64,000 nucleotides of DNA from an uncultured bacterium (GTDB lineage: Bacteria > Bacillota > CAZWXO01). Shown here piece by piece: positions 6,354 to 46,357 of this stretch (positions are counted from its first letter, which is position 1; every line of letters begins with the position of its first letter). The stretch lies in the NCBI GenBank assembly GCA_964637885.1, contig CAZWXO010000001.1, forward strand, positions 112,731 through 176,730. Reading direction: 5' to 3'. The position numbers and the translations under genes were made by a program. The notes beneath the pieces are model-generated. The model was not told the origin of the DNA and searched no databases. It saw only the letters and a program-made list of their open reading frames with translations.

Positions 6354-6428
<75 letters not shown>

Positions 6429-16149: not shown

Positions 16150-16495
16150 AATTGTCCGAGTAAACCTATAAGCCGAATTCTGTAATAGCAGCCATTTATC
16201 TAGGACAGTTATTGCTAACTGCCTCAAGCGACCTAACCCGGGAGAAAGGCGGGCAACCCTATTTCTCCTCTATTTGGTCTTGCTTCGAGTGGGGTTTACC
16301 TGGCCAAAGAGTCACCTCTCTGCCGGTGGGCTCTTACCCCACCATTTCACCCTTACCATCAATAAAGATGGCGGTATATTTCTGTGGCACTTTCCTTGGA
16401 GTCGCCTCCACCGGGAGTTACCCGGCACTCTGCCCTATGAAGTTCGGACTTTCCTCGGAGTTACCCCCGCGACTGCTCAGTTTGCTCGGACCATA
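16150..16495 (-). ncRNA. rnpB: RNase P RNA (rnpB), bacterial type A
   Basis: The minus strand reads ...GAGGAAAGTCCGAACTTCATAGGGCAGAGTGCCGGGTAAC...ACAGAAA...ACCGCC...GGTAAGGGTGAAATGGTGGGGTAAGAGCCCACC...CAAGACCAAATAGAGG...GGTCGCTTGAGGCAGTTAGCAATAACTGTCCTAGATAAATGGCTG...ACAGAATTCGGCTTATAGG. These are the universally conserved P4, P10-12, P15 and P18 segments. Helix P1 forms from GTCCGAGCAAAC at the 5' end and GTTTACTCGGAC at the 3' end. The plus-strand ORFs 16212..16529 and 16274..16498 are spurious. Confidence 0.85.
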
Positions 16496-18403: not shown

Positions 18404-18479
18404 TGGTGGGAACAATAGGGCTCGAACCTATGACCCCCTGCTTGTAAGGCAGGTGCTCTCCCAGCTGAGCTATGCTCCC
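18404..18479 (-). tRNA. tRNA-Val (anticodon TAC)
   Basis: The reverse complement is GGGAGCATAGCTCAGCTGGGAGAGCACCTGCCTTACAAGCAGGGGGTCATAGGTTCGAGCCCTATTGTTCCCACCA. Confidence 0.85.
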
Positions 18480-18486
18480 AAATTTT

Positions 18487-18561
18487 TGGTGACCCCACCG
18501 GGATTCGAACCCGGGTTACCGCCGTGAAAGGGCGATGTCTTAACCGCTTGACCATGGGGCC
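18487..18561 (-). tRNA. tRNA-Glu (anticodon TTC)
   Basis: The reverse complement is GGCCCCATGGTCAAGCGGTTAAGACATCGCCCTTTCACGGCGGTAACCCGGGTTCGAATCCCGGTGGGGTCACCA. Confidence 0.85.
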
Positions 18562-18565
18562 ACGT

Positions 18566-18640
18566 TGGTGGGCCCACTAGGGATCGAACCTAGGACCGAC
18601 CGGTTATGAGCCGGTTGCTCTACCGCTGAGCTATAGGCCC
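18566..18640 (-). tRNA. tRNA with anticodon CAT (Met, or Ile2 if lysidinylated; resembles Bacillus tRNA-Ile2)
   Basis: The reverse complement is GGGCCTATAGCTCAGCGGTAGAGCAACCGGCTCATAACCGGTCGGTCCTAGGTTCGATCCCTAGTGGGCCCACCA. Confidence 0.75.
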
Positions 18641-18648
18641 AAATTAAA

Positions 18649-18723
18649 TGGCTCCCCGAGTAGGATTCGAACCTACGACCCTCCGGTTAACAGCCGGATG
18701 CTCTACCGCTGAGCTATCGAGGA
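18649..18723 (-). tRNA. tRNA-Asn (anticodon GTT)
   Basis: The reverse complement is TCCTCGATAGCTCAGCGGTAGAGCATCCGGCTGTTAACCGGAGGGTCGTAGGTTCGAATCCTACTCGGGGAGCCA. The antisense ORF 18358..18555 is spurious. Confidence 0.85.
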
Positions 18724-24039: not shown

Positions 24040-26442
24040 CTAAGATTTCCTTTTGCTGATACTCACGGTTAAACGATTTTCATCTTTCCAGCCTGCCAAG
24101 CGCCGTTCAATTCGTCCATAGATGCTGTCCTCCCCCCATTTATGACTCTCATCCTCGGAGGGAGTTGATGCTGGTTTCCCTGTTAATAACTCAATCCCCT
24201 CTTCAATTCTTTCTACGTACCAAATATTGAATGTACCCTTCCGTACGGCAGAAATTATCTCGTCATCTAGAACAAGATCATCGATATTTGCCTTAGGAAT
24301 CATGACCCCTTGACTTGGATTAAAACCCAGCAGTTTGCATAGATTAAAAAACCCTTGAATTTTATAGTTAACGCCTCCGATGGGTTGGACATAACCTTTT
24401 TGATTTACTGATCCTGTTACGGCTATTCCTTGGTTAATCGGCACTAAAGATAGTGATGAAAGCAGGGCATATATTTCAGTACTTGAAGCGCTATCTCCAT
24501 CGATACCATAATAATTTTGCTCGAAACAAATGCTGGCGGAGAAATTAATTTTACTATTAGACGCAAATTTTTCACAAAACCAGCCACTTAAAACATTAAC
24601 GCCTTTTGAATGAATCTTGCCGCTCAATTCAGATTCCCTTTCAATATTAACAACACCGCGCTGACCTGCCCATGTATTAACAGTTATCCGAGCGGGCTGC
24701 CCCATTGTGTAGTCTCCTGCCTGCATCACAGAAAGCCCGTTAATTTGTCCGATTTTGTATCCATTGACCTCCATGAGAATGGTTTGATCCGCGTACATTT
24801 CTCCCACTTTTTCTTCATAACGGTTTAGGCGCTTCTTTTTTTCAAAGATCGCATTCTCGATGTCATGGCGCTCGATGTAATCGCCATGACGTAAAACGCG
24901 AAGCATATTGGCTTCATGTAGAACTTCAACAATATCAGAAAATTTTGTTGTGAGTTTTTTCTGTGACTCAGCTAGCAAAGAGCAATGTTCAACAATCTTA
25001 ACAACAGCATTCTTCTTGCAATGAGCGATATTTTCTTGAATGCAATGCGAAGCGATAAACTTCGCTAATAATTGACAATTTTTTTTGCTATAGTCGATTT
25101 CATCGTCAAAATCGACCTTGATTTTAAATAGTTCTGAAAAATCTTCATCGTAATCGCTCAAAATTTCGAATACATGAGGGCTACCAATAAGAATAATTTT
25201 TATTTTTAAAGGAGCAGCTTCCGGTTTTAGCGACGAAGCGGGGAATACTCCAATCATCTCAGCCGCGTTCTCAATGCAAATACTCTGACTTTTTAGCGCC
25301 CTTTTTAATGCTTCGTAGGCTTGAGGATTAGTTAATAAATCGCGCACTGGTAAAATTAGATAACCCCCATTTGCTTTATGCAAAGCTCCAGCCTTGATTT
25401 TTAGAAAATTCGTAGAAGCAACACCCATATTATTTTCATACTCTAATTTCCCAATGAGATTAGCGAGAGTCGGATTGTCCTCAAAAATTACTGGCGCACC
25501 TTCCTGGATGCTGTTGTCGATAAATAAATTTACTTGATAACGAGTTTCTATCTTTTCTTTAAAGTTTGCAATAGCCGTAAGGTCTTCATCATCACCTTCA
25601 AATTCTCTGAAAGCGATTAAATTGTCTAATATATCAAGGCGCATCTCTTCGATGTATTCGCGTAATTTGGCGTGCTCGGGAAAATTGTTTAGAAATTCCT
25701 CAAACAAAACATCGATTGTGAATAAAGCGGTTTTTTCATCTAAATCTTCAATCTCAAAACGTACTTTTTTTTCTTTTTTGACCAAGTTTTGTAAAGTTTG
25801 ATTAGCCAGCTTGCTGACTACGGTTGCCTTTTTATCGATCTCTTTTTTGGTATCCACGTTTAATAACAGGTATTCATCTTCGTTAATTGTTTTGCCATCA
25901 ATAATTGGAATCGTCGCATACCCGCCATCGACCCATTTGACGGCAAAGCCGTGCTCCGCAGCAAAAATATTCAGTTTTTCTAGTGCGGAATCTCTTTCTT
26001 TTTTAAATCTATCAATTATCGAAACTTTGTTTTTTTCATAATTTTTACTACTAAATGCCTTCGGTATCTCAGCATATAAATCTGTCACCATTTCATCCAT
26101 TTTCTTGGCGAAGAATCGTCCCATTCCTGAAGGGAACATTAATGTAATCGGTTGATCCGGAAGATTGAAACTGTTTACATAGCAAATGTCATCTGGAGCT
26201 TCCTGCAATGCAGCTGTGCTCTTAACAACATCCATTGTGTAACTAAGCTTGCCTGTACCTGACATGCCTGAAACGAAAATATTGTAACCAAAACTTTTAA
26301 TCCCCAAACCAAATTTCATAGCTTTTTGTGCCCTATCCTGCCCAATCATGCCTGTTAATGGTTCAATTTCGGCGGTAGTCTGGAAATCAAAATATTGAGG
26401 TGGACATTTTTTTTTAAGTTGAGATGGTTTCAGTTGTTGCAT
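24040..26442 (-). CDS. Lon-related AAA+ serine protease (LonB/LonC-like, S16 family)
   Basis: The N-terminal AAA+ domain has a Walker A (GMSGTGK). The C-terminal Lon proteolytic domain has the catalytic Ser region GDSASSTEIYALLSSL and a downstream Lys. The protein is 800 aa. Its first 29 nt overlap the 3' end of hom. Confidence 0.7.
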   Translation of the reverse strand: MQQLKPSQLKKKCPPQYFDFQTTAEIEPLTGMIGQDRAQKAMKFGLGIKSFGYNIFVSGMSGTGKLSYTMDVVKSTAALQEAPDDICYVNSFNLPDQPITLMFPSGMGRFFAKKMDEMVTDLYAEIPKAFSSKNYEKNKVSIIDRFKKERDSALEKLNIFAAEHGFAVKWVDGGYATIPIIDGKTINEDEYLLLNVDTKKEIDKKATVVSKLANQTLQNLVKKEKKVRFEIEDLDEKTALFTIDVLFEEFLNNFPEHAKLREYIEEMRLDILDNLIAFREFEGDDEDLTAIANFKEKIETRYQVNLFIDNSIQEGAPVIFEDNPTLANLIGKLEYENNMGVASTNFLKIKAGALHKANGGYLILPVRDLLTNPQAYEALKRALKSQSICIENAAEMIGVFPASSLKPEAAPLKIKIILIGSPHVFEILSDYDEDFSELFKIKVDFDDEIDYSKKNCQLLAKFIASHCIQENIAHCKKNAVVKIVEHCSLLAESQKKLTTKFSDIVEVLHEANMLRVLRHGDYIERHDIENAIFEKKKRLNRYEEKVGEMYADQTILMEVNGYKIGQINGLSVMQAGDYTMGQPARITVNTWAGQRGVVNIERESELSGKIHSKGVNVLSGWFCEKFASNSKINFSASICFEQNYYGIDGDSASSTEIYALLSSLSLVPINQGIAVTGSVNQKGYVQPIGGVNYKIQGFFNLCKLLGFNPSQGVMIPKANIDDLVLDDEIISAVRKGTFNIWYVERIEEGIELLTGKPASTPSEDESHKWGEDSIYGRIERRLAGWKDENRLTVSISKRKS

Positions 26443-27666: not shown

Positions 27667-30288
27667 TCATAGAAAATTATTTTTTACTACAACGACATAA
27701 CTTTCGTCGACAAAATCAATTTCTAAATGAGAATTATTTAAAATCTTATCTTCAATAATTTCTTTAGCGATTAAGGTTTCGATGTTGCGTTGGACGTAAC
27801 GTCGCAGCGGACGCGCCCCATATGCATAATGGTACCCCCTTGAAACAATTGTGAAAATGCATTTCTCCGTTAAATCAATAGTAATATTTCGGTCAGATAG
27901 CCGGCTCTCAACCTCCTTGACAATCAAATGAATAATTTGACCAATCTCATCTTTGCCAAGCGGGTTGAATATTGTGGTCTCATCGATCCGGTTCAATATT
28001 TCAGGGCGGAAATATTTTTGCAGCTCTAAAATAACCATATTTTTTATTGCGTCGCTGATAAATCCCTCAATCTCCATTTGTTTCAATAGAATCTGGGAGC
28101 CAATATTAGAAGTAAGGATTATAATAGTATTCTTAAAGTTTATTTTTCTCCCTTGCGCATCAGTTAATTGCCCTTCATCAAGAAGTTGTAATAAAATATT
28201 GATAACATCCGGGTGGGCCTTTTCCACTTCGTCGAATAGTACCACGCTGTACGGTTTGCGTCGAATTGCCTCGCTTAGCTGGCCTCCCTCATCGTAGCCG
28301 ACATATCCTGGTGGTGCTCCGATCAGTCTTGACACTGTGTGTTTTTCCATGTATTCACTCATATCGATGCGAATTAAATTGTGTTCATCATCAAAGAGTA
28401 CAGCGGCCAAAGATTTAGCCAGCTCAGTTTTGCCAACGCCAGTCGGTCCTAAAAAAAGGAAAGAACCTTGCGGACGCTTGGGGTCATTAATGCCGGCACG
28501 TGCACGAAGGATGGTATTGCTTACCAAAGAAACAGCCTCGGCTTGGCCGATTACCCTTTGCTTCAACTCGTTTTCCAGGGTTAGTAACTTAATCTTTTCC
28601 GATTGCAATAGTTTCGACAGTGGAATTTTTGTCCATCGCGAAATAATTTCAGTAATTTCATCTTCGGTTACGGCCTCTCGAACCAAAACATCAATACTAT
28701 CTTTAGAAGAGTCGATAACTTTTTGAATCGCTGCAATATCTTTTTCAAGTGCCGGAATTATGCCGTATTTTATTTTAGCTGCTTTTTCATGATCATACTC
28801 ACGTTCAGCAATTTCTTCATTATGATGTGCATGTTCCAAATCCAATCGTAATTTTTTTAATTGACTAATTTGCCCCTTCTCTCCATTCCATTGCAACATC
28901 AAAATATCCAGCTTTTCCTGTTGCTCTTGCAATTCAAGCTGAATGTCAGCCAATCTTTTTTTGCTGTCGCTATCTTTTTCTTTTTGCAATGCCATAATTT
29001 CGATTTGAAGTTGGTTTATTCTTCGAGAGATTTCATCGATTTCCGACGGCATCGATTCGATTTCGGTCCTTAGCATGGCACATGCTTCATCGATCAAATC
29101 GATAGCTTTATCGGGCAAGAAACGGTCGGTAATATAACGATGGGATAGCTTGACTGCAGCTACAATTGCGCCATCATGTATGCGAACTCCATGGTATGTT
29201 TCGAATCTCTCCTTGAGACCTCGCAGGATAGAAATACTTTCATTGACGTCGGGCTCCTCAACGCTCACAGGTTGAAAACGTCGCTCTAATGCGGCATCTT
29301 TTTCAATATGCTTGCGATATTCATCGTTAGTCGTAGCTCCAATGCAATGCAACTCACCTCTGGCTAGCATTGGTTTTAAAAGATTGCCAGCATCCATCGC
29401 TCCTTCTGTTTTTCCTGCTCCAACGATTAAGTGAATTTCATCAATAAACAGGATGATGTTGCCGACAGAGTTTTTTATCTCTGCCAGAACAGCCTTTAGT
29501 CTCTCCTCAAATTCGCCTCGATATTTCGCGCCAGCTAGCAGTGCTCCAATATCGAGTGAAAAAACTTTGACACCCTGCAAGCTATCAGGAACATCCCCAT
29601 TTTTTATACGCTGGGCTAATCCTTCAACAATCGCAGTTTTACCAACGCCGGGCTCACCTATCAATACGGGATTATTTTTAGTTTTGCGCGATAAAATGCG
29701 AATAACATGCCTAATTTCTTCATCGCGTCCGATGACTGGATCAAGCTTCCCTTGAATCGCCTGAGCTACGAGTTCGACTCCGTACTTGCTGAGTGCTTCG
29801 TAAGTATTCTCGGGATTTGCACTAGTAACACGCTGATGGCCGCGGATATCTGACAACACTGAAAAAATTCTGTCGCGATTGATGTTTAAAAGATTCAAAA
29901 GTCTTTCAAGGTCACGCTCTCCAGGCTTCTCAGCTATTCCGAGAAGGAGATGCTCCACAGAAATATACTCATCTTTAAGGCGTCTTGCCTCAGCCTCAGC
30001 GATATTTAACGCTAAAGAAAGTGAGGCGTCTACCATTAATGAGTCTTTACTTGTGGATGTTTTGCTATGTTTCGGCTTCCGATTAATTATGGCCTCGATT
30101 TCCACGATGAAGTTTTCGATGTCTGTGCCAAGCCTTTTTAGTAAGGGGGCAACCAAACCACCCTCCTGCAAAATCAAAGCAAGGAATAAGTGACTGCATG
30201 AAATTTCATTATTCCCATGTTCCATTGCAATATTACTAGCCTGGTGAAAAGCTTCTTGCGATTTTTGTGTCAGGCGATTAAAATCCAT
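27667..30288 (-). CDS. clpB: Chaperone ClpB (Hsp104-type disaggregase)
   Basis: It has two AAA+ modules ([18 protein letters not shown] and [16 protein letters not shown]) and a long M-domain coiled coil between them. Confidence 0.95.
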
Positions 30289-30302
30289 CGTGCTTCCCCT
30301 TC

Positions 30303-30623
30303 CTAGAGCTGTTTTCGCATTATTGCCAGCTCTCGTGTTAATTTAGCGTTCTCGTGCAATAAATCGACAATCAGAGCAGCACCTGGCCAATTTATACCGA
30401 GGTCGTCGTGAATCCGTCGCACTTCCTCTAATCGATCTATCTCGTCTTGCCCAATTAGGGGGTTTTCCATGGTTCCTTTGTAGAGGATAATACCCATTTC
30501 GAGCATTCTAGCAATAAAATCACAACTCACTGAAAGGGCGATCGCCGCCTGATCTATACTAAAATAATCTCCCTCCAATGAGACGCTTCGTTTCTCAATC
30601 CAAAAATTAACCATGGGATTCAC
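30303..30623 (-). CDS. cbpM: Chaperone modulator CbpM (MerR-like fold)
   Basis: The 106-aa protein has a C-terminal region (GINWPGAALIVDLLHENAKLTRELAIMRKQL) that aligns with E. coli CbpM ([30 protein letters not shown]). It overlaps cbpA by 17 nt. Confidence 0.75.
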   Translation of the reverse strand: MNPMVNFWIEKRSVSLEGDYFSIDQAAIALSVSCDFIARMLEMGIILYKGTMENPLIGQDEIDRLEEVRRIHDDLGINWPGAALIVDLLHENAKLTRELAIMRKQL

Positions 30624-31542
30624 CTTCTTTTTTCGGGTTTGCTGCTAAATTATCAATGGCCACTAATTTTTCAACAAGATCCAATTGCTCTTTTGATAAA
30701 TGCTTAGGGATTTTTACATTGGAAATGACAAATAAATCGCCAAACCCCTCTTTTTTTGGCAAACCCTTCCCTTTTATGCGCAGTTTTTGACCAGTCTGAA
30801 TACCAGCTGGCAAATTAATCTCTAACTTTTTTGCATCAATGGTTTCAATGACTATTTTGCCCCCAAGGGTTGCTAACCAAGGACTAACATTTAATTTAAA
30901 ATATAAGTCGTGGTCAATTACTTCATACTGAGGGTGAGGCTTAAAAGCAAGTTTAATCAGTAGATCTCCCCGCGTTCCTGACGAAGTAAGGCTACCTTGT
31001 CCTCGGAGACGAATTTTGGTCTCATTTTTAACACCGCGAGGTATCTTAAACTCAACGCTTCTCAACTCATCATTATCGGCGCTCGATAATTGTATTTTTT
31101 TAGTAGCCTCTTTAAATGCCTCCACAATTTCTATTTCAATATCTACTTGCGTCTCTCGGCTTTGCTGAAAAGGATTGGCCCCCTGTCTTCTGCCGGCATA
31201 GGCCGAGCCAAACAAAGACTCAAAAAAATCGCTGAACTCTCCAGAGGAAAAGCCTTGTGTATTCTCGCCCTGAAATCCCCAAGGCGAACCAGAGAAGCTA
31301 GCATTTTTATCCCAATTAGGACCCAGCTGGTCATATTTTTTGCGCTTGTCGGGGTCTTTTAAAACCTCATATGCTTCATTGATTAATTTAAATTTTTCCT
31401 CTGCGTCCTTTTCTTTGTTGACATCGGGATGATATTTCCTTGCTAAGCGTCGATAAGCAGCTTGGATATCCTTTTGCGTGGCGCTTTTATCAATTTCAAG
31501 TTTATTATAATAATCAACAAATTGTACGGGCATTACATTCAC
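30607..31542 (-). CDS. cbpA: Curved-DNA-binding protein CbpA (DnaJ-like; J-domain plus C-terminal domains, no zinc finger)
   Basis: It has a J-domain (YYNKLEIDKSATQKDIQAAYRRLARKYHPDVN) and a G/F region, but lacks CxxCxGxG repeats. It sits directly upstream of cbpM. Confidence 0.8.
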   Translation of the reverse strand: MNVMPVQFVDYYNKLEIDKSATQKDIQAAYRRLARKYHPDVNKEKDAEEKFKLINEAYEVLKDPDKRKKYDQLGPNWDKNASFSGSPWGFQGENTQGFSSGEFSDFFESLFGSAYAGRRQGANPFQQSRETQVDIEIEIVEAFKEATKKIQLSSADNDELRSVEFKIPRGVKNETKIRLRGQGSLTSSGTRGDLLIKLAFKPHPQYEVIDHDLYFKLNVSPWLATLGGKIVIETIDAKKLEINLPAGIQTGQKLRIKGKGLPKKEGFGDLFVISNVKIPKHLSKEQLDLVEKLVAIDNLAANPKKEGESHG

Positions 31543-31583
31543 CTCTTATTAAAAGCTCCCGCCGAAACGGGAGCATTTAAGAA

Positions 31584-33458
31584 CTAATTTTCTGTGTAGT
31601 CGGCGTCAATTACGTCGTCACTTGACGCGCCAGGGGTTGCCGAATCAGGATCTTGGCCTTGTCCCGATGATGCAGAAGACATTTGATAGATTGCTTGCTG
31701 CAAATCTTGCGTTTTTTTCTTGATGTCCTCAACTGGATTATCATTCTCAAGAGCATTTTTTAAATCTTGAACAAGCATTTCCGTATGCCCTTTTAGATTA
31801 ACTGGAGCGCTCTCTGGTAAATCTTTCACTGCTTTTTCCGCCTGATAAATCATGCTATCCGCTTCGTTTCTAATTTCAATTTTCTCACGTTTTTCCTTGT
31901 CAGTAGCCGCATTGAGTTCACCTTCCTGGACCATTCGATCGATTTCACCTTTATCGAGATTTGTGGAACCGCTTATCGTTATTTGCTGGGCTTTGCCGGT
32001 TTGCTTATCCTTGGCAGAAACAGTAAGAATACCATTTGCATCGATATCAAAACTCACTTCAATTTGGGGAATGCCCCTAGATGCCGCGGCTATGCCTTCT
32101 AGTTTAAATTGTCCAAGTCGTTTATTGTCAGAAGCCAGCTCTCTTTCCCCTTGCAGTACAACTATATCAACTGCTGGTTGATTGTCCTCGGCAGTTGAGA
32201 AAACTTCAGCTTTTTTAGCAGGAACAGTTGTGTTTCGCTCAATAAGTTTTGTCATCACTCCACCAAGTGTTTCAACTCCGAGAGACAGAGGCGTCACATC
32301 CAACAAGAGTACATCCTTAATTTCTCCACTAAGGACGGCTGCTTGAACTGCAGCCCCGATTGCAACAACTTCATCTGGATTCACGGACATGTTAGGCTGC
32401 TTTCCACCTGTTAACCTTTTAACAAGTTCTTGCACGGCTGGTATACGCGTTGATCCACCAACGAGAATTACCTCGTCGATATCCGCTTGAGAAACTTTTG
32501 CATCATCCATGGCTTGCCGAACTGGGTGTTCGGTTCGTGTTATTAGGTCAGCTGCCATTTCCTCAAATTTGGCCTTGGACAAAGATAGCTCCAAATGCTT
32601 TGGGCCATTAGCGTCGGCACTGATAAAAGGCAAGTTAAGCATGGTCTGGCTTGTTGAGGATAATTCAATTTTTGCTTTCTCTGCGGCTTCAAAAAGTCGT
32701 TGTAATGCTTGCCGATCGTTTTTAAGATCGATGCCGTGTTCTCGCTTATATTCCACAACCATCCAGTCGACTATCCGTTTGTCGAAATCGTCGCCCCCAA
32801 GATGAGTATCGCCAGAGGTCGACTTAACTTCAAAAACTCCGTCGCCAACATCGAGGAGAGACACGTCAAAAGTTCCTCCTCCCAAATCATATACAATAAT
32901 AGTTTCGTTCTTCTTTTTATCAAGGCCATAGGCTAGCGAAGCTGCAGTGGGTTCGTTAATAATGCGCAAAACGTTTAGACCAGCAATCTGACCTGCGTCC
33001 TTAGTTGCTTGCCTTTGCGCATCATTAAAATACGCGGGCACAGTAATAACAACATCTTTTACTTTTTCTCCTAAATATTTTGAGGCGTCATCAGCTAGTT
33101 TGCGCAAAATTTGGGCGCTTATTTCTTCGGGAGATACTATTTGACCTTCAATATCAAACCTAATACTATCATTTGGTCCCTTGATAACTTTGTAAGGGAC
33201 CATTGATATCTCATTTTCTACTTCGTCGTACTTCCGGCCCATGAAACGCTTAACAGAAAAAATTGTCCCAGCATGATTTAAGACAGCTTGCCTTTTTGCT
33301 AATTGTCCGACCAACCGATCACCATTCTTTGCATAGGCGACAACAGACGGTGTAGTTCTGCCTCCCTCGGCATTCGCGATGACGACTGGATTGCCGCCTT
33401 CCATAACGGCAACAACCGAATTAGTTGTACCTAAATCGATTCCGATTGCTTTTGCCAT
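31584..33458 (-). CDS. dnaK: Second Hsp70 (DnaK paralog)
   Basis: It carries the full Hsp70 signature ([35 protein letters not shown]). A canonical dnaK lies in the hrcA operon at 61286..63112. Confidence 0.9.
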
Positions 33459-34344: not shown

Positions 34345-34436
34345 TTATTACACCTCTTTTAATAAAAAATTTAAATAATGAGTTGTTATTTTCTTATACC
34401 TATTATATATTACATCTGATGTGAATTTCCTTCTTT

Positions 34437-37400
34437 TTGATTGGAGTGAAAAAGGTGATTATACTTGGTGTCTGCATTGGTTCCCATTCAATATCTTGGA
34501 CTTTATTAGATAAAAAAGATTTAATAAAAAATCAAATAATCAAAAACGGGTATCTGCAACATCATGGCAGGCCTGTTGATTGCGTTAAAGAATTGATTGA
34601 TGACATGGAAAATCTTTATGACTTGGTTAATATTACAGGAAAGAATCTTATCTTTGCAAAGGAAATGAATTACATTCCTGAGGTAGAGTCAGTTGAATCA
34701 TCGTATAAGTTTTTCAAATCTAAGTATACTGGAATCGATGGGATTATTGATTGTGGCGCGGAAACTATCTTTTACTATCCAGTTGATTCCTTCGGCAACA
34801 TAATTGATGTTGTGGCTGGAAATAAGTGTGCTTCGGGAACAGGAGAGTTTTTAGTCCAGCAGATTAAGCGAATGGGTCTAGAAATCGAAGAAGCTAATCT
34901 CATCGCCGATTTAGAAAATTCTTATGCTGTGGCTGACCGCTGCTCGGTTTTCTGTAAAAGTGACTGCACCCATGCTCTAAATAAGGGTGTAAGCAAGAGC
35001 CGTGTCATCGGTGGTCTAATAAAAATGATGGCTAACAAAGCTCTCAATCTCATTGACGGATGCCAGAATAAAACTATCATGATAATTGGTGGCATGGCCT
35101 GCAATTACAAATTTGTGGAAGCTATGCGAAGCTCGGTAAAAGAATTAGTGGTTGCCGACGAAGCTGTTTTTTTTACATCGGTAGGTGCGGCCATGTCTGA
35201 ATCAAGAAATCAAAGTTTTAAATATAGCAATAGTGAGTGCTGTGCTGAAAATGCAATCAAGTACGAGCCGCTCGATGCATCCAGCACCGTTGAATTCATG
35301 ACCTGGCCGACATTGAGTAATGATCTTGTCACCTTGAGCAAAGAGATGAAGTTTGTTTTGGGGATCGACATTGGTTCGACCACAACCAAGGCAGTAATAG
35401 TTGACATTGATTCAAAAAAAATTATCGCTTCAAATTATTTACGCACCCACGGCGACCCTATTTTAGCCGTGAAAAAATGCCTCCAGATGATCATAGATGA
35501 GCATCGCGCTATTGATCGCGTCGAAGGGATAGTGACAACAGGCTCGGGCAGAGTTATCGCTTCTTTGTATTTAAATCAATGCCTCAACGTCAATGAAATA
35601 TTGGCGCATGCTAAGGCTGCCGTGTTTTTTGACGAGGATGTCGACACTATTTTCGAAATCGGCGGGCAGGATGCCAAGTATACTTTTTTAACAGGTGGTG
35701 TTCCTTCAGATTATGCGATGAATGAAGCTTGCTCTGCTGGAACAGGCTCGTTTCTCGAAGAAGCAGCAAAAGAATCTCTTTCAATCGCAACTGAAAAAAT
35801 CGGTGATTTCGCCAAAAAAGGTGATTCGCCTCCACACTTTAACGATCAATGTGCTGCTTTCATCGGAAGTGATATAAAATCGGCTATTCTTTCGGGCATC
35901 TCCGTAGAAAATATTTGTGCTGCGCTTGTTTACTCGATTTGCAACAATTATTTAACGAGGGTCAAGGGTAACCGCACCGTTGGGAAAAAAATTTTTATGC
36001 AGGGAGGGGTTTGTTTTAACTCAGCTATACCGATAGCGATGTCAAAATTGTTAAAAAAACCTGTTATTGTTCCACCGCACCCCGGATTGATGGGCGCTTT
36101 TGGAGCATCTTTGATTTGGATTGAAAAATGGCAACGCAACGATATTGAAGTGACACCCAGCGATATCAGTGATTATTTAGTGAAAAGCGTTAATTATTTA
36201 GCCCCCTTCTTTTGCCATGGCGGTAAAGAAAGGTGTGATCTGAAATGCCAGATCAGCCTAATCGAAATTGACACGAAGAAAATGTCTTTTGGGGGTGCAT
36301 GTGATAAGTATAATAGCAAAACTGATACTAAAGAAAAAAATAGTGAAAGAATTGATAAACTTGACTTGGTATCTGCATATGAGAAAATAATTTTTGCCCA
36401 ATCTAAGGATGATTTGACACAAGAAGTCAATAAGAAAAAAATTATCTTAACAAAGTCCTTGATGATGAACTCTTTTTTCCCACTGTTTTCAACTTTTTTT
36501 AAAGAGCTTGGGCTAACTGTCACGCTTATTGAATTTGTGGATGCCCATATTACGGGTGATTTCGTTTCCGAATTTTGTTACCCTGTCATGCATGCTCACC
36601 GCCTTGCAGTTGCTGCGACAACAAAAGAGGCCGATTATTTTTTTCTTCCTCATATAAAGAATGTGCAAACCTTTAATGGGCAAACCGGAACCTTATGCCC
36701 ATTTGTGCAAGCCAACCCGTACATGACAGATAGTATTCTTGCTTCATTAGAGTCTAAAATGCGCTTGCTCAGACCTATCATTAATTTGACTAATGATTAT
36801 GCTGACAGCGAGCTGTCTTTTCTCGATTTGGCTCAACAACTCGGTTTTACACAAAAACTGGCTAAAAAAGCCTTCGATACAGCTGTCACTACGCAATTAG
36901 CAAGGGAATTAGAAATTAAAACAAAGGTCTCGGCAGCTTTTAAAGAAATGGAAGAGACAAATGCATTAGGGATTGTGGTTTTCGGTAGAACATATAATGC
37001 TTTTGCCTCCGACTTGAACATGGGAATAACAAAAAAAATAGCTTGCAAGAATTATTACGTCTTCCCCTGTAATTATATTTTAGATGGCATGCGGAATTTA
37101 GCCGAGCAGGAAATGTACTGGGCTAGCGGACAGTACATTGTCGAAGCGGCAAAATATGTCTCTCAGCATCGCAATTTATTTGGGGTTTATATTACCAACT
37201 TCAGTTGCGGACCTGATTCATTCTTGTTGAATTATTTCCGCAATATAATGGGCGGCAAGCCTTCGCTAACTATTGAGCTTGACGGGCACACCTCTAATGC
37301 TGGAGTTGAAACTAGAATCGAGGCTTTTGTCGATATTTTGGAGAACTATCGACAGATTATAAATGCAAGCAAGGCAACTCCTCAAAAAAGTGATTTAGAT

Positions 37401-38627
37401 ATGGCTAAATCTTCGCTACCAAAGAAATTAACAAGCGGACGCTCGGCGATTATAGTGCCCTCAATGGGCGGATACTCAGCTGCTTTACTGGCAAAAGGTT
37501 TTGAATATCTAGGATACCATTCAATACCTTTACCAATTCCAACTTCAGAGAATCTTCGAGCAGGTCAATCTTTAACAACATGCAAAGAATGCCTACCATT
37601 TAATCTGGTCTTGGGGAGTATTTTAGATTACCTACGACAGCATGAACTGGAAACAAAATATGACTATAATATTTTCTTGCCAACTGCTAATGGCCCATGT
37701 CGATTTGGGCAATACACAAAGTTAACGAGAGACGTCTTGGCCAAAGAAGGTTATGGGGATATTGATTTTCTAACGGTATCCTCAGAAGACAGCTATAATT
37801 CTTTCAGTCGGAATTTCATGCTCAGATCATGGCTAGGCATTTTAACCAATGACCTATTGAGTGACATGAAGTCAGCGCTCCGTGTTTCTGCAAAACACCC
37901 AGGGCCAGCTCTTGAAATATTTGATACTTGTGTAAAAAGAATAATTGAAAGATTTGCCACTTCAAGTATCAAAGAAATATTCGAGGAAATGCGTAAATCT
38001 GCCCAAGAATTAGCAAACATTGAAAAACAACATAATCTCAATAATCTGCCTGCCGTATATATTATCGGGGAGATTTTTGTTCGACGCAGCGATTCATGCC
38101 AAACAGAAGTAATCGAAAGATTGCTTGAGCAGTCAATTATTCCCGTTATTGCACCGATCCACGAGTGGGTATATTATTGCGACTATTTAGAGGAAAATGG
38201 TATTTTAAAACAAATCAATGCTGTCGACAAGTTGAAGAAAAAGATCGAAATATTTGTGAAAAGATTAATGGAAAAAAAGATAAAAAAGGTTTTTGCTGAT
38301 TGTGGTTTGTTACTCGAAAAGAAAATTTTAGATATAGATAGCATTATTTCTAAAGGTGCGCGTCATCTTGATTTGCAGTTGACAGGTGAGGCAATTTTAA
38401 CAGTTGGTTCCGGAATTGAAGCCCAAGAGAATTATCAAGGGATAGTATCGTTATATCCTTTTGGCTGCATGCCGGGAAGAATTGCTGAATTTTTCCTCAA
38501 GAACGAAAATAAAGGCTATCCCTTTTTGTCATTAGAACTCGATGGAAATAAATTGCCGCCGGTTATCGAAGCCAAGATTGATTCTTTTATCTCTCAAGTA
38601 AAAAGACAAAAACAAGGCAAAAAATAA
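34437..38627 (+). CDS. Fusion protein: two BadF/BadG/BcrA/BcrD (HgdC-like) activase ATPase modules, a DUF2229-like region and a 2-hydroxyacyl-CoA dehydratase (HgdB/D-component-like) C-terminal domain
   Basis: Module 2 begins at about aa 300 with the canonical FVLGIDIGSTTTKAVIVD and the cluster cysteines CSAGTGSF / CAAFIGSD. Module 1 (aa 1-260) keeps the cluster cysteines (CASGTGEF, CSVFCKSDC) but its phosphate-1 motif is degenerate (LGVCIGSHS instead of LGIDxGST). The likely start is GTG 34455 after a GGAGTG RBS. Confidence 0.65.
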   Translation: MIGVKKVIILGVCIGSHSISWTLLDKKDLIKNQIIKNGYLQHHGRPVDCVKELIDDMENLYDLVNITGKNLIFAKEMNYIPEVESVESSYKFFKSKYTGIDGIIDCGAETIFYYPVDSFGNIIDVVAGNKCASGTGEFLVQQIKRMGLEIEEANLIADLENSYAVADRCSVFCKSDCTHALNKGVSKSRVIGGLIKMMANKALNLIDGCQNKTIMIIGGMACNYKFVEAMRSSVKELVVADEAVFFTSVGAAMSESRNQSFKYSNSECCAENAIKYEPLDASSTVEFMTWPTLSNDLVTLSKEMKFVLGIDIGSTTTKAVIVDIDSKKIIASNYLRTHGDPILAVKKCLQMIIDEHRAIDRVEGIVTTGSGRVIASLYLNQCLNVNEILAHAKAAVFFDEDVDTIFEIGGQDAKYTFLTGGVPSDYAMNEACSAGTGSFLEEAAKESLSIATEKIGDFAKKGDSPPHFNDQCAAFIGSDIKSAILSGISVENICAALVYSICNNYLTRVKGNRTVGKKIFMQGGVCFNSAIPIAMSKLLKKPVIVPPHPGLMGAFGASLIWIEKWQRNDIEVTPSDISDYLVKSVNYLAPFFCHGGKERCDLKCQISLIEIDTKKMSFGGACDKYNSKTDTKEKNSERIDKLDLVSAYEKIIFAQSKDDLTQEVNKKKIILTKSLMMNSFFPLFSTFFKELGLTVTLIEFVDAHITGDFVSEFCYPVMHAHRLAVAATTKEADYFFLPHIKNVQTFNGQTGTLCPFVQANPYMTDSILASLESKMRLLRPIINLTNDYADSELSFLDLAQQLGFTQKLAKKAFDTAVTTQLARELEIKTKVSAAFKEMEETNALGIVVFGRTYNAFASDLNMGITKKIACKNYYVFPCNYILDGMRNLAEQEMYWASGQYIVEAAKYVSQHRNLFGVYITNFSCGPDSFLLNYFRNIMGGKPSLTIELDGHTSNAGVETRIEAFVDILENYRQIINASKATPQKSDLDMAKSSLPKKLTSGRSAIIVPSMGGYSAALLAKGFEYLGYHSIPLPIPTSENLRAGQSLTTCKECLPFNLVLGSILDYLRQHELETKYDYNIFLPTANGPCRFGQYTKLTRDVLAKEGYGDIDFLTVSSEDSYNSFSRNFMLRSWLGILTNDLLSDMKSALRVSAKHPGPALEIFDTCVKRIIERFATSSIKEIFEEMRKSAQELANIEKQHNLNNLPAVYIIGEIFVRRSDSCQTEVIERLLEQSIIPVIAPIHEWVYYCDYLEENGILKQINAVDKLKKKIEIFVKRLMEKKIKKVFADCGLLLEKKILDIDSIISKGARHLDLQLTGEAILTVGSGIEAQENYQGIVSLYPFGCMPGRIAEFFLKNENKGYPFLSLELDGNKLPPVIEAKIDSFISQVKRQKQGKK

Positions 38628-38687
38628 AAGAAGCGCCTTTGCCTCTTAATGGGCATAGGCGCTTCTAGTTGGTAAATCTAAAATAGT

Positions 38688-42882: not shown

Positions 42883-45528
42883 TTATCCATCATTTTCAGT
42901 TAAGGCAGCCTGCCCAGCCGCTAGTCTAGCAATCGGCACCCGATAAGGCGAGCAGCTAATGTAATCTAGTGGCAATTTGTGGAAAAATTTAATTGATTGC
43001 GGATCCCCACCATGTTCACCACAAACGCCGATTTTGAGATTAGGTTTTCTTTTTCGTCCATTGGCAATGCCCATTTTGACAAGTGCACCAACTCCATCTT
43101 CATCGATGACGGCAAATGGATTATCTTTCAAAATCTTGTGCTCTACATAGAAATGCAAGAATTTACCTTCGGCGTCGTCTCGGGAAAATCCGAGGGTAGT
43201 CTGTGTCAGATCATTGGTGCCAAATGAAAAGAAGTCAGCAAATTCAGCAATATCATCAGCAGTAACGCATGCCCTTGGCACTTCGATCATCGTTCCTACT
43301 GAGTAAGAAACATCGACATTGTTTTCTTTTAGAATCTCATCCATCGTTTCGACTGTAATCTCCCGCATAAACTGTAGTTCATTAGCATGGACAACAAGTG
43401 GGATCATAATTTCAGGAACGACTGATATTCCCCGCTTAGCTAGGTCTACTACCGCCAATGCAATTGCTTTAATCTGCATCTGATATATATCTGGATGCAC
43501 AATCCCTAAGCGAACTCCACGATGCCCAAGCATTGGATTAAACTCTGCCAAGGCTTTAACTTTTCGTAGTAAATTTTCTTTTGATGCTATATTTTTTGAA
43601 TCCCCGCCTGTCAGTTTTAATGTCCGAACTTCAACTGTTAAATCTTCACCATTGGGTAAGAACTCGTGCAACGGCGGATCTAGCAAGCGAATGGTGACAG
43701 GCAGACCTTCCATCGCTTCGAAAATACCAATAAAATCATTCATTTGCAACGGCATAAGCTTATTTAAAGCTAATTTCCGTTCTTCGTCATCCTCCGCCAA
43801 AATCATCGCTTGGACTAATGGAATTCGATCCTGGGCCATAAACATATGTTCCGTGCGACAAAGTCCAATTCCTTGCGCTGCAAATTCCCTTGCTTTTAAA
43901 GCATCTTGAGGATTATCCGCGTTGGCATATACCTTTAGTCTTCTAAACTCATCTGCCCAAGCCAAAATGGTCCGAAATTCCTCTCCAAGTGTTGGATCAA
44001 TCAGAGTGACCTCGCCATTGATTACGTCTCCGGTTCCGCCATCGATGGTAATCAAATCGCCTTCGCGAAAGGTTTTATCATCTACATTGAATTCACGTGA
44101 AACAAGATTAACTTTGATTGCATCACAACCGCAGACACATGGTTTTCCCATTCCCCTTGCTACCACAGCCGCATGGCTGGTCATCCCACCCCGGGAAGTT
44201 AAAATCCCCTCTGCTGCCAAAATTCCATGGATGTCATCAGGAGTAGTTTCGGTTCGTACTAATATAACTTTTGCGCCAGCTTTTACTTTGTCAACGGCAT
44301 CATCCGAGTCAAATACAATGACTCCCAGGGCAGCCCCAGGTGAAGCAGGTAAACCTCGGGCAATTATGTCATATTTCAGGCTATGATCGATGCGTCGATG
44401 CATCACATGATTCAATTGTTCCGGCTCGACTCTCATGATAGCTTCTTTTTTGCTGATTAAACCTTCTTCAGCCATATCGACGGCACACTTCATCGCCGCT
44501 GCTGCAGTCCTTTTGCCTGTTCGGGTTTGCAGCAAATAAAGTTTACCTTTTTCGATAGTAAATTCAATATCCTGCATATTTCGGTAATGAGTTTCGAGAC
44601 GGGTGCAAATATCGACAAACTGCTGGAAAACTTCCGGCATTTCCGATTCCAATTGCGAGATGTGGTGTGGTGTCCTAACACCTGCAACAACATCCTCGCC
44701 TTGAGCGTTGAACAGATATTCTCCATACAGGAGTTTTTCGCCGGTCGATGGATTGCGAGTGAAGGCAACACCTGTTCCTGAATCAGATCCCATATTACCA
44801 AAAACCATGGATTGGACAGTCACTGCGGTCCCAATATCGTCAGAAATTTTGTTGATTTGACGATATATTTTCGCTCGCGGATTCTGCCAAGAATCAAAGA
44901 CAGCCTCAATGGCCATATAGAGCTGTTTTTTAGTATCTTGCGGAAAATCTGCTTGCGCATTGTCGCGGACAATCGCTTTGAACGTAACGACAAGTTCGCG
45001 TAAATTTTCACATGTAAGTTCGTTGTCAAAAGAAACATTTGCTCGTTTTTTAAGTACATCGAGTGCATGTTCAAAATCGCTGTAAGGTGCTTTCATCACA
45101 ACTTCACCAAACATTTGGATGAAACGGCGGTAGCAATCTAAGGCGAAACGTTCATTGTCAGTAGCTTTGGCAACGACTTCAACCGTCTCATCGTTGAGAC
45201 CTAGATTTAAAATGGTATCCATCATCCCTGGCATTGATACAGCGGCACCGCTACGAACGGATACGAGCAAAGGATTATCGCCGTAGCCGAAAGTTTTCCC
45301 TGTGCTCGCTTCGAGAGTAGCCAAAGCGCTCTCAGCTTGGCTGATCAAGTCATGGGAAAGCTTGTGTTCTACCTGATATTCATTACATGCACCTGTCGAG
45401 ATTGTAAAGCCGGGCGGAACAGGTAGACCAATACTTACCATTTCCGCCAAGCCAGCGCCCTTTCCCCCCAGGATGCTTTTCATAGAAGCATTGCCTTCAC
45501 TAAATAAATAGACTTTCTTTTCAGACAT
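42883..45528 (-). CDS. ppdK: Pyruvate, phosphate dikinase
   Basis: The 881-aa protein has the PPDK N-terminal ATP-grasp, a central phosphohistidine domain (GGMTSHAAVVARG) and a PEP-utilising C-terminal domain. Confidence 0.95.
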   Translation of the reverse strand: MSEKKVYLFSEGNASMKSILGGKGAGLAEMVSIGLPVPPGFTISTGACNEYQVEHKLSHDLISQAESALATLEASTGKTFGYGDNPLLVSVRSGAAVSMPGMMDTILNLGLNDETVEVVAKATDNERFALDCYRRFIQMFGEVVMKAPYSDFEHALDVLKKRANVSFDNELTCENLRELVVTFKAIVRDNAQADFPQDTKKQLYMAIEAVFDSWQNPRAKIYRQINKISDDIGTAVTVQSMVFGNMGSDSGTGVAFTRNPSTGEKLLYGEYLFNAQGEDVVAGVRTPHHISQLESEMPEVFQQFVDICTRLETHYRNMQDIEFTIEKGKLYLLQTRTGKRTAAAAMKCAVDMAEEGLISKKEAIMRVEPEQLNHVMHRRIDHSLKYDIIARGLPASPGAALGVIVFDSDDAVDKVKAGAKVILVRTETTPDDIHGILAAEGILTSRGGMTSHAAVVARGMGKPCVCGCDAIKVNLVSREFNVDDKTFREGDLITIDGGTGDVINGEVTLIDPTLGEEFRTILAWADEFRRLKVYANADNPQDALKAREFAAQGIGLCRTEHMFMAQDRIPLVQAMILAEDDEERKLALNKLMPLQMNDFIGIFEAMEGLPVTIRLLDPPLHEFLPNGEDLTVEVRTLKLTGGDSKNIASKENLLRKVKALAEFNPMLGHRGVRLGIVHPDIYQMQIKAIALAVVDLAKRGISVVPEIMIPLVVHANELQFMREITVETMDEILKENNVDVSYSVGTMIEVPRACVTADDIAEFADFFSFGTNDLTQTTLGFSRDDAEGKFLHFYVEHKILKDNPFAVIDEDGVGALVKMGIANGRKRKPNLKIGVCGEHGGDPQSIKFFHKLPLDYISCSPYRVPIARLAAGQAALTENDG

Positions 45529-46357
45529 CTGTGGTTTCCCTCCTTTTTTTAATACAATCGATTATTTCATTGGCTGTTTCTTCAATTGCTTTTTTGGTAA
45601 CGTTGATTATCGGGCACTTCAGTTTTCTCATTAAGGCTTCAGCAAAATCCAGCTCACTGAGAATCCTGTCAAGATTAGCATAGTCAGCTTGGTTAGGTAG
45701 CCCCAGAACCTTTAATCGTGTCTGGCGAATCGAGAATAATTCTTCCGGATTAATTGTCAGCCCCACCATTTTACGATTAGAAATTTCAAAGAGCTCTTTT
45801 GGAGGCGTTACTTCAGGAACTAGCGGAATATTTGCGACTTTATAGCCACGGTTTGCCAAATACATACTTATAGGTGTTTTTGAGGTCCGGGAAACACCTA
45901 CCAAAGCAATGTCCGCCTTAAACAATCCTCGAGGATCCTTGCCATCGTCAAATTTTACAGCAAACTCAATAGCCTCGATGCGCTGAAAGTACTCTGCGTC
46001 TAATCGGTGAATCTTACCTGGTTCCATCTTTGGCTCGACCCCTGTAATTGATGACAAGCTATTCAAAAGAGGCCCCATCAAATCAATCGCCTCGATAGAT
46101 TTTTCAAGTGCCTTTTCCGCTAAGTATATTCTCAAATCACTGTCAAGCAGGGTATAAACAAGCATACTAGGTTTTTTGGTAGCTGTGTCTAAGATCGTAT
46201 CGATAAAATTCCGATCATTAACATATGGCATTCGCTTAATTTCAAAATTATTTGCCGAAAACTGGCTGATGCCCGCCCGGACAACAAGCTCTGCTGTTTC
46301 ACCAATCGAATCGGAAACAATGTAGATCTTAAACCGCTGTTTCTGGTCTTGATCCAT
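45521..46357 (-). CDS. PPDK regulatory protein (PDRP, DUF299/YqfL family kinase-phosphotransferase)
   Basis: It has the P-loop GVSRTSKTP. It overlaps the ppdK start and sits downstream of ccpN, as yqfL does in Bacillus. Confidence 0.85.
   Translation of the reverse strand: MDQDQKQRFKIYIVSDSIGETAELVVRAGISQFSANNFEIKRMPYVNDRNFIDTILDTATKKPSMLVYTLLDSDLRIYLAEKALEKSIEAIDLMGPLLNSLSSITGVEPKMEPGKIHRLDAEYFQRIEAIEFAVKFDDGKDPRGLFKADIALVGVSRTSKTPISMYLANRGYKVANIPLVPEVTPPKELFEISNRKMVGLTINPEELFSIRQTRLKVLGLPNQADYANLDRILSELDFAEALMRKLKCPIINVTKKAIEETANEIIDCIKKRRETTDV

Follow-up and report, generated by a model that had tools for sequence, protein, structure and literature searches.

What is the function of a single, very large protein in which two activase-type ATPase modules, the first with non-canonical nucleotide motifs, are fused to dehydratase-like domains? 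Its gene lies on contig CAZWXO010000001.1 of an uncultured bacterium, in the stretch of 64,000 nucleotides analysed here (the window, to which all positions refer; features are on the plus strand unless otherwise indicated). Our best explanation, with a probability of about 0.7, is that it codes for a self-contained, ATP-driven Fe-S glycerolipid ester reductase of the PlsA/Ger family, in the clade that includes the Thermotoga-type Ger enzymes. The longest open reading frame (34437..38627) has a TTG start and 1396 codons in an intact frame. The JGI gene call begins at GTG 34455 and yields 1390 aa; this GTG, with a GGAG ribosome-binding site read in the sequence 8 nt upstream (34443..34446), is likely the true start, and residue numbering follows the 1390-aa form (calculated mass ~157 kDa). 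On the basis of the open reading frame, the JGI call, the homologs and the clade placement, 34455..38627 is predicted to be a complete PlsA/Ger-family glycerolipid ester reductase gene of the Ger-type clade. A consensus scan offers a weak sigma-70-like promoter candidate (TTGTTA-17-TATATT, 34383..34411, 9/12 consensus matches) in the 110 bp that separate the gene from the divergent nadK. Directly 3' of the stop codon, a 9-bp inverted repeat (AGAAGCGCC ... GGCGCTTCT; 38629..38666, either strand) sits in the 60-bp gap before a convergent gene, and is possibly a terminator common to both genes; a scan placed a terminator-like site on the minus strand at 38647-38628.

The protein matches the Pfam BcrAD_BadFG profile in two stretches (E 4e-52), DUF2229 at residues 671-878 (E 5e-36), HGD-D in a short match at 915-968 under the gathering score, and NCBIfam TIGR00241. 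Two BcrAD-type activase modules are followed by DUF2229 and a second HAD-like module, a pattern denoted BBD(H). As the homology search returned ~8000 full-length homologs of 1380-1450 aa at E = 0, homology is not a matter of chance. In fold searches, the N-terminal half resembles HadI, MbdQ/P, HgdC and DCCP-R (Foldseek E about 1e-20), and the C-terminal half HadBC, BzdNO and DCCP; identity to solved dehydratase/reductase subunits is only 9-13%. The presence of activase and alpha/beta catalytic-subunit folds shows shared ancestry and mechanism type with the HAD/BCR enzymes, not membership among them. The domain composition proposed in an earlier note on this DNA, including its dehydratase-like C-terminal half, is borne out by these Pfam, NCBIfam and fold searches.

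The second activase module, Act2 (residues 296-566; 35340..36152), is a canonical ATPase by Pfam (308-560), phmmer (HadI, MbdQ and HgdC, E 1e-22 to 1e-28) and Foldseek (target TM-score 0.85-0.88). Its motifs are GIDIGSTTTK, EIGGQDAK, NEAC426SAGTG, DQC466AAF and QGGVCFN, the first contained in the LGIDIGSTTTK that had been quoted correctly. A four-Cys linker motif follows (C587-x6-C594-x3-C598-x17-C616; 36213..36302), in which all four Cys are invariant. It lies where the activase half passes into the reductase half, in a region of low model confidence, and is probably a site for a metal or Fe-S cluster; the PlsA clade has an equivalent motif with other spacing. Red1 (residues 661-985; 36435..37409) comprises DUF2229 and the short HGD-D match, resembles HAD/BCR catalytic subunits and carries invariant Cys708, Cys748 and Cys918. 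Red2 (residues 986-1390; 37410..38624) is a second such module, equivalent to PlsR in split systems, with invariant Cys1046, Cys1082 and Cys1338.

As for the first module, Act1 (residues 1-262; 34455..35240), its HgdC/BcrAD fold emerges from the second Pfam BcrAD stretch, the alignment to HadI, the AF2 model searched with Foldseek, and PDB profiles of DCCP-R and MbdP matching residues 109-251. Its motifs read GVC7IGSH11S (phosphate-1), D99C100GAET (phosphate-2) and IIGGMACN (adenosine). In the alignment to the solved activator HadI (4EHT), the phosphate-1 Asp column holds Cys7, with no alternative Asp at that position, and Cys125 and Cys163 occupy the two [4Fe-4S]-ligand columns. Act1 thus lacks the phosphate-1 Asp and Thr and the acidic phosphate-2 residues and retains the cluster-ligand cysteines; for the first two residues and the cysteines, and for the sequence LGVCIGSHS itself, the earlier note had read the module correctly. 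By homology to HgdC/HadI, Cys125 (34827..34829), which is clade-invariant and part of GNKCASGTGEF, aligns with the Cys of HadI NDKCAAGTG and is the first predicted ligand of the bridging [4Fe-4S] cluster. Cys163, the second predicted ligand, opens the stretch C163-SVF-C167-KSD-C171-T-H173 (34941..34973), invariant in the Cys-type clade; the same helix carries three further residues peculiar to this clade, Cys167, Cys171 and His173, which are replaced by A, V and P in the PlsA clade. The Asp-to-Cys change at Cys7 is found in 117/118 close homologs, always together with two more cysteines (CxxxCxxxC) and a conserved His, and the same substitutions are near-invariant across ~190 clade members of many phyla. 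The proposal of a dead ATPase kept for dimer architecture is therefore incomplete: the loss of the catalytic Asp stands, but mere degeneration does not. Since Cys7 and the added Cys/His residues are conserved clade-wide while module 1 of the PlsA clade is canonical, this is not lineage-specific decay; judging from sequence conservation, the former nucleotide pocket has been remodelled in one clade in a conserved and probably functional way.

The function of the PlsA/Ger family, which turns ester-linked into ether lipids in anaerobes, was established by expression in E. coli in papers from 2021-2025, and its published domain architecture matches the pattern found here (PMC13159169; PMC8788747 supplement). 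The plsA-plsR genes of C. perfringens and the single-gene forms of E. faecalis, L. cremoris and B. longum led to plasmalogen synthesis (PMC12838417), and Ger of T. maritima and D. alkenivorans to 1-alkyl glycerol ether synthesis (PMC13159169); of four Ger-type homologs tested, the two from T. geofontis and Ca. Kuenenia failed to produce ether lipids in E. coli. The view that such fusions are uncharacterised and their substrate unassigned is thus wrong: the BBD(H) architecture is that of a family with expressed members, whose substrate is a membrane glycerolipid ester and, by extension, presumably that of our protein as well. The latter is a further, deep-branching member of this known family.

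The family comprises two deep clades that are ~23% identical to each other. In a neighbour-joining tree (1357 trimmed columns, 200 bootstraps), the Cys-type clade containing our protein was recovered in 200/200 replicates, together with Thermotoga petrophila RKU-1, T. neapolitana, Pseudothermotoga, Kosmotoga, Mesotoga and a Desulfatibacillum MAG; for the validated T. maritima Tmari_0479 and D. alkenivorans SHJ90043, only close relatives stand in (T. petrophila, other Thermotoga relatives and a congeneric MAG). Our protein is 38-43% identical to this clade versus 21-23% to the PlsA clade. With one other sequence (P0002), it branches outside all other sampled Cys-type members (192/200), to which it is ~41% identical, and it is the deepest sampled branch of the Ger-containing clade. 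It keeps 272/306 clade-invariant positions (89%) and every conserved Cys, and differs at 34 otherwise near-invariant positions; given the ~41% identity, the outermost branching and these changes, a functional shift is possible. Compared with a 79% relative whose gene lies in conserved synteny, pN is 0.12 and pS 0.76, and the gene is under purifying selection.

The two clades are also separated by their first modules. Our comparison yielded an Act1 signature of the Cys-type clade, GxCxG[AS]S plus RC[ST]VFCKSDCTH, which is not a published criterion; it occurs in 117/118 matches and in every Thermotoga-side match with an intact N-terminus. Our protein reads GVCIGSHS and RCSVFCKSDCTH, and the signature motifs are common to it, T. 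petrophila and Desulfatibacillum. With the Ger proteins (T. maritima Tmari_0479 / AGL49404; D. alkenivorans SHJ90043; Sahonero-Canavesi et al. 2022, PMC13159169) it shares the ~1400-aa single chain Act1-Act2-DUF2229-(HGD-D)-Red2, and with Ger-type relatives the Act1 signature, the linker Cx6Cx3C...C, the 3+3 Cys of Red1/Red2 and the stand-alone gene. It differs in its phosphate-2 motif, DCGAET against SAGGE[TN] in the clade, and in His11, where the clade has Ser, in a comparison with relatives rather than validated Ger sequences. The PlsA clade, in contrast, has canonical ATPase motifs in both modules (Listeria, the Fusobacterium split plsA-plsR, and C. perfringens as assigned by a cloning primer). 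The canonical Act1 phosphate-1/-2 motifs (GxDxGSTT.K, ELGGEDAK), absent from our protein, which has Cys7 and DCGAET, occur in 120/120 Listeria-search matches and six other PlsA-clade references.

Might the protein be a plasmalogen synthase sensu stricto, which performs the same chemistry but stops at the sn-1 vinyl ether, as do C. perfringens PlsA-PlsR and E. faecalis PlsA? We regard this as unlikely. PlsA-PlsR (CPE1194/1195) and single-gene PlsA (E. faecalis EF1327, L. cremoris, B. longum; Jackson et al. 2021; PMC12838417) share superfamily, domain order and Pfam matches with our protein, as well as the proposed sn-1 ester chemistry on diacyl glycerophospholipid, and they need no further protein for activity in E. 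coli. Cys-type genes are present in many Clostridia too, Bacillota with several PlsA-like homologs produce plasmalogens, the route to the alkyl ether has been proposed to pass through a vinyl ether, and only two Ger-type enzymes have an assayed product. Nevertheless, membership in the PlsA group proper (C. perfringens, Fusobacterium, Listeria, Collinsella) was rejected, our protein being on the opposite side of the 200/200 split from this separate, vinyl ether-producing clade, whose Act1 reads G[IL]D[VI]GSTT.K, ELGGEDAK, RCGVFAKTD and GGP plus a 5-aa insert. The C. perfringens plsA start, as given by the primer, is MYYKIGI and then a codon whose first base is G, which excludes Cys at that position; it is nearly identical to Fusobacterium (M)HYKIGIDVGSTT. 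A TetR/AcrR-type regulator has been reported upstream of plsA in facultative anaerobes, and we find a TetR-like gene upstream of the PlsA-clade gene in Collinsella, with a TetR-type one likewise in E. faecalis. Listeria is without one, so the feature is not universal; directly upstream of our gene is the divergent nadK, not such a regulator.

Less probable still is a BCR/HAD-type reductase or dehydratase acting on another substrate, an acyl-CoA or a small molecule as for DCCP/YjiM, which is how the earlier note read the gene. In its favour are the folds shared with 2-hydroxyacyl-CoA dehydratases, benzoyl-CoA reductases and DCCP, the position of our lineage as the deepest in its clade, with unusual Act1 substitutions, and the existence of additional superfamily clades that have no assigned function (a 1282-aa protein from a Paraclostridium plasmid and one from Brevibacillus). 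Against this reading stand the collinear homology to Ger-type proteins over the whole chain, with its retained cysteines and invariant positions, and the low identity to solved subunits. HgdC/HgdAB, HadI/HadBC, BcrABCD, BzdNOPQ and MbdONPQ share the ATP-driven [4Fe-4S] activase fold with both N-terminal modules (Foldseek target TM-score 0.85-0.88), and Act1/Act2 mimic a BcrA/D-type heterodimer, but our protein fuses all four subunits in one chain with one ATPase site remodelled, and it would act on an ester of a membrane lipid instead of a CoA thioester. DCCP/DCCP-R (E. coli YjiM/YjiL) differ in that DCCP is a separate homodimer with six Cys per [8Fe-9S] cluster, in contrast to three invariant Cys in each of two non-identical modules, at ~12% identity. 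The gene is monocistronic and flanked by nadK, dnaK-dnaJ-hspR-clpB and genes for a peptidoglycan-binding protein, an amidohydrolase and an AdoHcy hydrolase; no CoA-transferase, CoA-ligase or aromatic-degradation gene was found within 10 kb to either side. Without such genes or separate activator and catalytic subunits alongside, assignment to a 2-hydroxyacyl-CoA dehydratase or benzoyl-CoA reductase system was rejected. No conserved partner gene was found across 80 related loci; a CDP-alcohol phosphatidyltransferase lies directly upstream at 5/80. That the gene stands alone with no acyl-CoA partners had been noticed before; such partners are not expected if the substrate is a membrane glycerolipid ester, and the isolation agrees with the published sufficiency of a single protein in E. 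coli. Finally, a decaying relic with a degenerated first ATPase module, for which only the residues lost from Act1 speak, is effectively refuted by the clade-wide conservation of the substitutions, the intact 1390-codon frame, the kept invariant positions and cluster-ligand cysteines, and pN far below pS.

For the preferred glycerol ester reductase, sn-1 ether membrane lipids are the best reading of the product, and we infer both the lipid substrate and the ether linkage. Act1 and Act2 would form an intramolecular pseudo-dimer like the HgdC/HadI homodimer and the BcrA/D-type heterodimer, holding one bridging [4Fe-4S] cluster between Cys125 and Cys163 (Act1) and Cys426 and Cys466 (Act2). As the residues for Mg-ATP hydrolysis are present only in Act2, turnover there would lower the cluster potential and drive electrons into a Red1/Red2 core built like HadBC or BzdNO, with three invariant Cys per half. 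The core would reduce the sn-1 acyl ester carbonyl of a membrane glycerophospholipid, with dehydration to a vinyl ether, which Ger-type enzymes would convert to the saturated alkyl ether. The former Act1 pocket, with Cys7, Cys167, Cys171 and His173, would probably hold a metal or extra Fe-S centre rather than ATP. It is tempting, if rather doubtful, to speculate that these residues form a Cys3-His site in the Ger clade, to which our lineage adds His11 and Cys100 in the former phosphate loops, and that this centre sets the vinyl versus saturated alkyl ether outcome. Our call of an alkyl product is a weak one, as the 2026 literature has as yet no sequence criterion separating Ger from PlsA (PMC13274423), and the link between function and clade is thin, drawn from one directly evidenced PlsA and proxies for two Gers.

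The uncultured anaerobic source bacterium thus probably makes ether-linked membrane lipids, which bear on the 'lipid divide' as seen from Bacteria and on where the alkyl glycerol ether and brGDGT biomarkers in sediments come from. The residue-level split between the founding plasmalogen synthase clade and the Thermotoga-type Ger clade may be the discriminator called missing, and it points to Act1 as a mechanistic determinant. If the Act1 centre does set the product, GxCxG[AS]S plus RC[ST]VFCKSDCTH would be a sequence diagnostic for Ger versus PlsA, and if the split holds, alkyl versus alkenyl ether production would become predictable in metagenomic surveys.

The open reading frame proposed in the earlier note, 34437..38627 on the plus strand (the longest form, from a TTG codon), is present in the sequence. 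A metagenome gene call and a GGAG motif 8 nt upstream favour a start at the GTG at 34455, giving a protein of 1390 aa from whose first residue we number. Pfam recognises BcrAD_BadFG in two stretches and DUF2229 at residues 671-878, together with a short HGD-D match at 915-968 that falls under the gathering score, and NCBIfam returns the generic activase domain TIGR00241 alone. The motifs LGVCIGSHS of the first activase module (Act1) and LGIDIGSTTTK of the second (Act2) are exactly as first read. That such fusions have not been characterised, as the note stated, no longer holds: plasmalogen synthases (PlsA) and glycerol ester reductases (Ger) form a family with this BBD(H) architecture. E. coli has been reported to make plasmalogens when given the plsA-plsR pair of C. 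perfringens (CPE1194/95) or the single-gene PlsA of E. faecalis (EF1327), L. cremoris or B. longum (PMC12838417; PMC9702350). Activity has been shown for two Ger-type enzymes only, those of T. maritima (Tmari_0479, AGL49404) and D. alkenivorans (SHJ90043), and two further ones gave no ether lipids in E. coli. Whether a member is a Ger or a PlsA is reported to be not yet assignable from sequence (PMC13274423). We infer that the substrate of our protein is a membrane glycerolipid ester, which would account for the lack of acyl-CoA-metabolism neighbours.

The gene does stand alone, being the sole plus-strand gene within a long minus-strand run of housekeeping genes. On its upstream side are found nadK, dnaK-dnaJ-merR/hspR-clpB, hom and a LonC-like gene; the downstream side carries genes for a PG_binding_1 protein, an amidohydrolase, an AdoHcy hydrolase, a NUDIX protein and PPDK. 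The heat-shock cluster dnaK-dnaJ-merR/hspR-like-clpB (27667-33458, minus strand) is found just past nadK, and its HspR-type arrangement might be of use in placing the source taxonomically; the LonC-like gene (24040-26442, minus strand) codes for a Lon-related protease of 800 aa, in which LonC_helical, AAA_32 and Lon_C domains are recognised, and adjoins the homoserine dehydrogenase gene; and at 42883-46357 (minus strand) pyruvate phosphate dikinase is followed by a PF03618 regulatory kinase/phosphatase and an HTH-CBS regulator. A class A bacterial RNase P RNA (16153-16488, minus strand, 311.9 bits) shows that the contig is bacterial. Four tRNA genes cluster in about 320 bp at 18407-18723 (minus strand), one isolated tRNA gene is at 6354-6425 (plus strand), and no rRNA was found within the 64-kb window. 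A 249-kb JGI metagenome contig (Ga0207193_1000018) matches the window, and a homologue with 79% identity from another metagenome lies in the same synteny. Between 34001 and 38000 the GC skew is +0.04 to +0.08 as compared with about -0.1 on either side, as fits a lone plus-strand gene in a minus-strand run, and the GC content dips to 39%; on its own this shift is no evidence of transfer.

The protein is an outlier among about 8000 full-length homologues: we found one exact copy and one relative at 79% identity, all others being at most 42% identical, and among the matches listed in a scan of genome contigs the relatives do not exceed 41%. The family splits into two deep clades. All intact-N-terminus clade members retrieved with our protein or a Pseudothermotoga homologue as seed have Cys at the phosphate-1 position of Act1, whereas Asp occupies this position in 120 of 120 matches of a Listeria-seeded search, which Paenibacillus dominates. 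In a neighbour-joining tree (trimmed alignment, 1357 columns), our protein falls within the Cys-type clade in 200/200 bootstraps, and in 192/200 it branches with its 79% relative as the sister group of the remaining Cys-type members sampled. Mean identity is 50% within the Cys-type clade, 41% between our protein and that clade, and 23% between the Cys- and Asp-type clades. Pfam strings are identical across both, so that the clades are distinguished by residues and not by domain architecture.

Which activity belongs to which clade was approached through proxies. The Pseudothermotoga-seeded search retrieved proteins of T. petrophila RKU-1, T. neapolitana, T. naphthophila and Thermotoga sp. RQ7, all very close relatives of T. 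maritima, with the N-terminus MTGVCIGSSS; the homologue of a Desulfatibacillum MAG is Cys-type as well. On the other side, tblastn of a plasmid collection that includes some mislabelled chromosomes yielded proteins of Listeria monocytogenes, Fusobacterium, Collinsella, Acetoanaerobium, Haliovirga and Paraclostridium, only 22-29% identical to ours and with a canonical first module (e.g. GLDVGSTTAK in Listeria). Fusobacterium has a split arrangement (975 aa + 404 aa) like that of C. perfringens, and its PlsA begins with (M)HYKIGIDVGSTT. Published cloning primers stood in for the validated PlsA sequences, with direct evidence for C. perfringens only: its plsA primer encodes MYYKIGI followed by a codon starting with G, which can be Asp but not Cys. 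The E. faecalis primer ends one codon short of the diagnostic residue. The primer-encoded termini had no match among the homologues compared, and the C-termini deduced from reverse primers are uninformative for clade assignment because C-termini are not conserved. In Collinsella, a TetR-like gene lies directly upstream, as reported for PlsA of E. faecalis (PMC9702350). Taken together, the Fusobacterium split genes and N-terminus, the C. perfringens primer and the Collinsella TetR-like gene support placing the founding PlsA in the Asp-type clade. We propose the Asp/Cys signature of Act1 as a candidate discriminator between PlsA and Ger; its basis is a single PlsA with direct evidence, together with relatives standing for the two validated Gers.

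The earlier note regarded Act1 as a dead ATPase retained for architecture. Alignment to the solved activator HadI bears out the residue changes: Cys7 fills the column of the phosphate-1 Asp, while Cys125 and Cys163 align with the two cluster-ligand cysteines and are thus kept. In addition, Cys167 and Cys171 replace Ala and Val of HadI on the helix that follows the second ligand, Asp170 corresponds to the second Glu of AESE, and His173 is invariant within the Cys-type clade. Across that clade Act1 reads GxCxG[AS]S, SAGGE[TN], GNKCASGTGEF and RC[ST]VFCKSDCTHALN, where the PlsA clade has instead G[IL]D[VI]GSTT.K, ELGGEDAK, CAGGTGAF and RCGVFAKTD. ATPase residues are truly lost, but the loss is ancient, invariant and coupled to three newly acquired cysteines; this pattern speaks for remodelling of the pocket and against a dead scaffold. 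The lineage of our protein has further changes in the same two loops, with His11 for Ser and D99-C100-G-A for S-A-G-G.

Act2 is fully canonical, and a model of the N-terminal part (pLDDT 84.8) matches HadI, MbdQ/P, HgdC and DCCP-R, the target TM-scores ranging from 0.78 to 0.88. Invariant cysteines form a motif in the linker (C587-x6-C594-x3-C598-x17-C616) and two sets of three (708/748/918 and 1046/1082/1338), matching the two C-terminal HAD-like modules (Red1 and Red2), each with a predicted three-Cys cluster site. Decay into a pseudogene was considered and rejected: the substitutions are conserved, 272 of the 306 positions whose conservation in the clade reaches 97% are retained, as is every conserved Cys, and pN (0.12) is far below pS (0.76, saturated) relative to the 79% homologue.

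No conserved partner gene was found across 80 related loci, the most frequent cluster occurring in 12 of them at varying positions, and an obligate operon partner for the Ger-type gene was thus rejected. In five of the 80 loci (L015, L029 and three more, some from Desulfobacterales MAGs), the gene immediately preceding the Ger-type gene, in the same orientation, encodes a membrane protein of 499 aa that gives two CDP-alcohol phosphatidyltransferase matches. This provides a modest link to lipid metabolism, and the pair may represent a lineage-specific lipid operon.

Full-length Cys-type homologues about 40% identical to ours are also present in Methanosarcinales and Nanoarchaeota MAGs (loci L013 and L047), consistent with the published report of Ger homologues in archaea. 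Further deep superfamily clades are represented by a 1282-aa protein of Paraclostridium bifermentans plasmid pHD0315_2-2 (L084:3992-7837), devoid of the linker Cys4 motif and Red2 cysteines and whose gene adjoins those of a Crp/Fnr regulator and an ABC transporter, and by an ORF of about 1180 aa in Brevibacillus laterosporus (L089); the Act1 Asp is canonical in both. Monoglobus pectinilyticus (L090:2995-6212) has three genes, for DUF2229-like (329 aa), HAD-like (407 aa) and single activase (330 aa) proteins, and the same modules thus also exist unfused and in a different order.

In the mechanism that we propose, Act1 and Act2 would form a fused pseudo-heterodimer holding one [4Fe-4S] cluster, ATP hydrolysis by Act2 would drive low-potential electrons into the Red1/Red2 core, and this core would convert the sn-1 ester of a phospholipid into an ether by reduction and dehydration. 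The earlier interpretation is partly borne out as regards the residues, but not as regards novelty, since the family is known. The locus is a deep-branching lineage newly added to the PlsA/Ger family, and its clade membership favours a Ger-type alkyl ether as the product.
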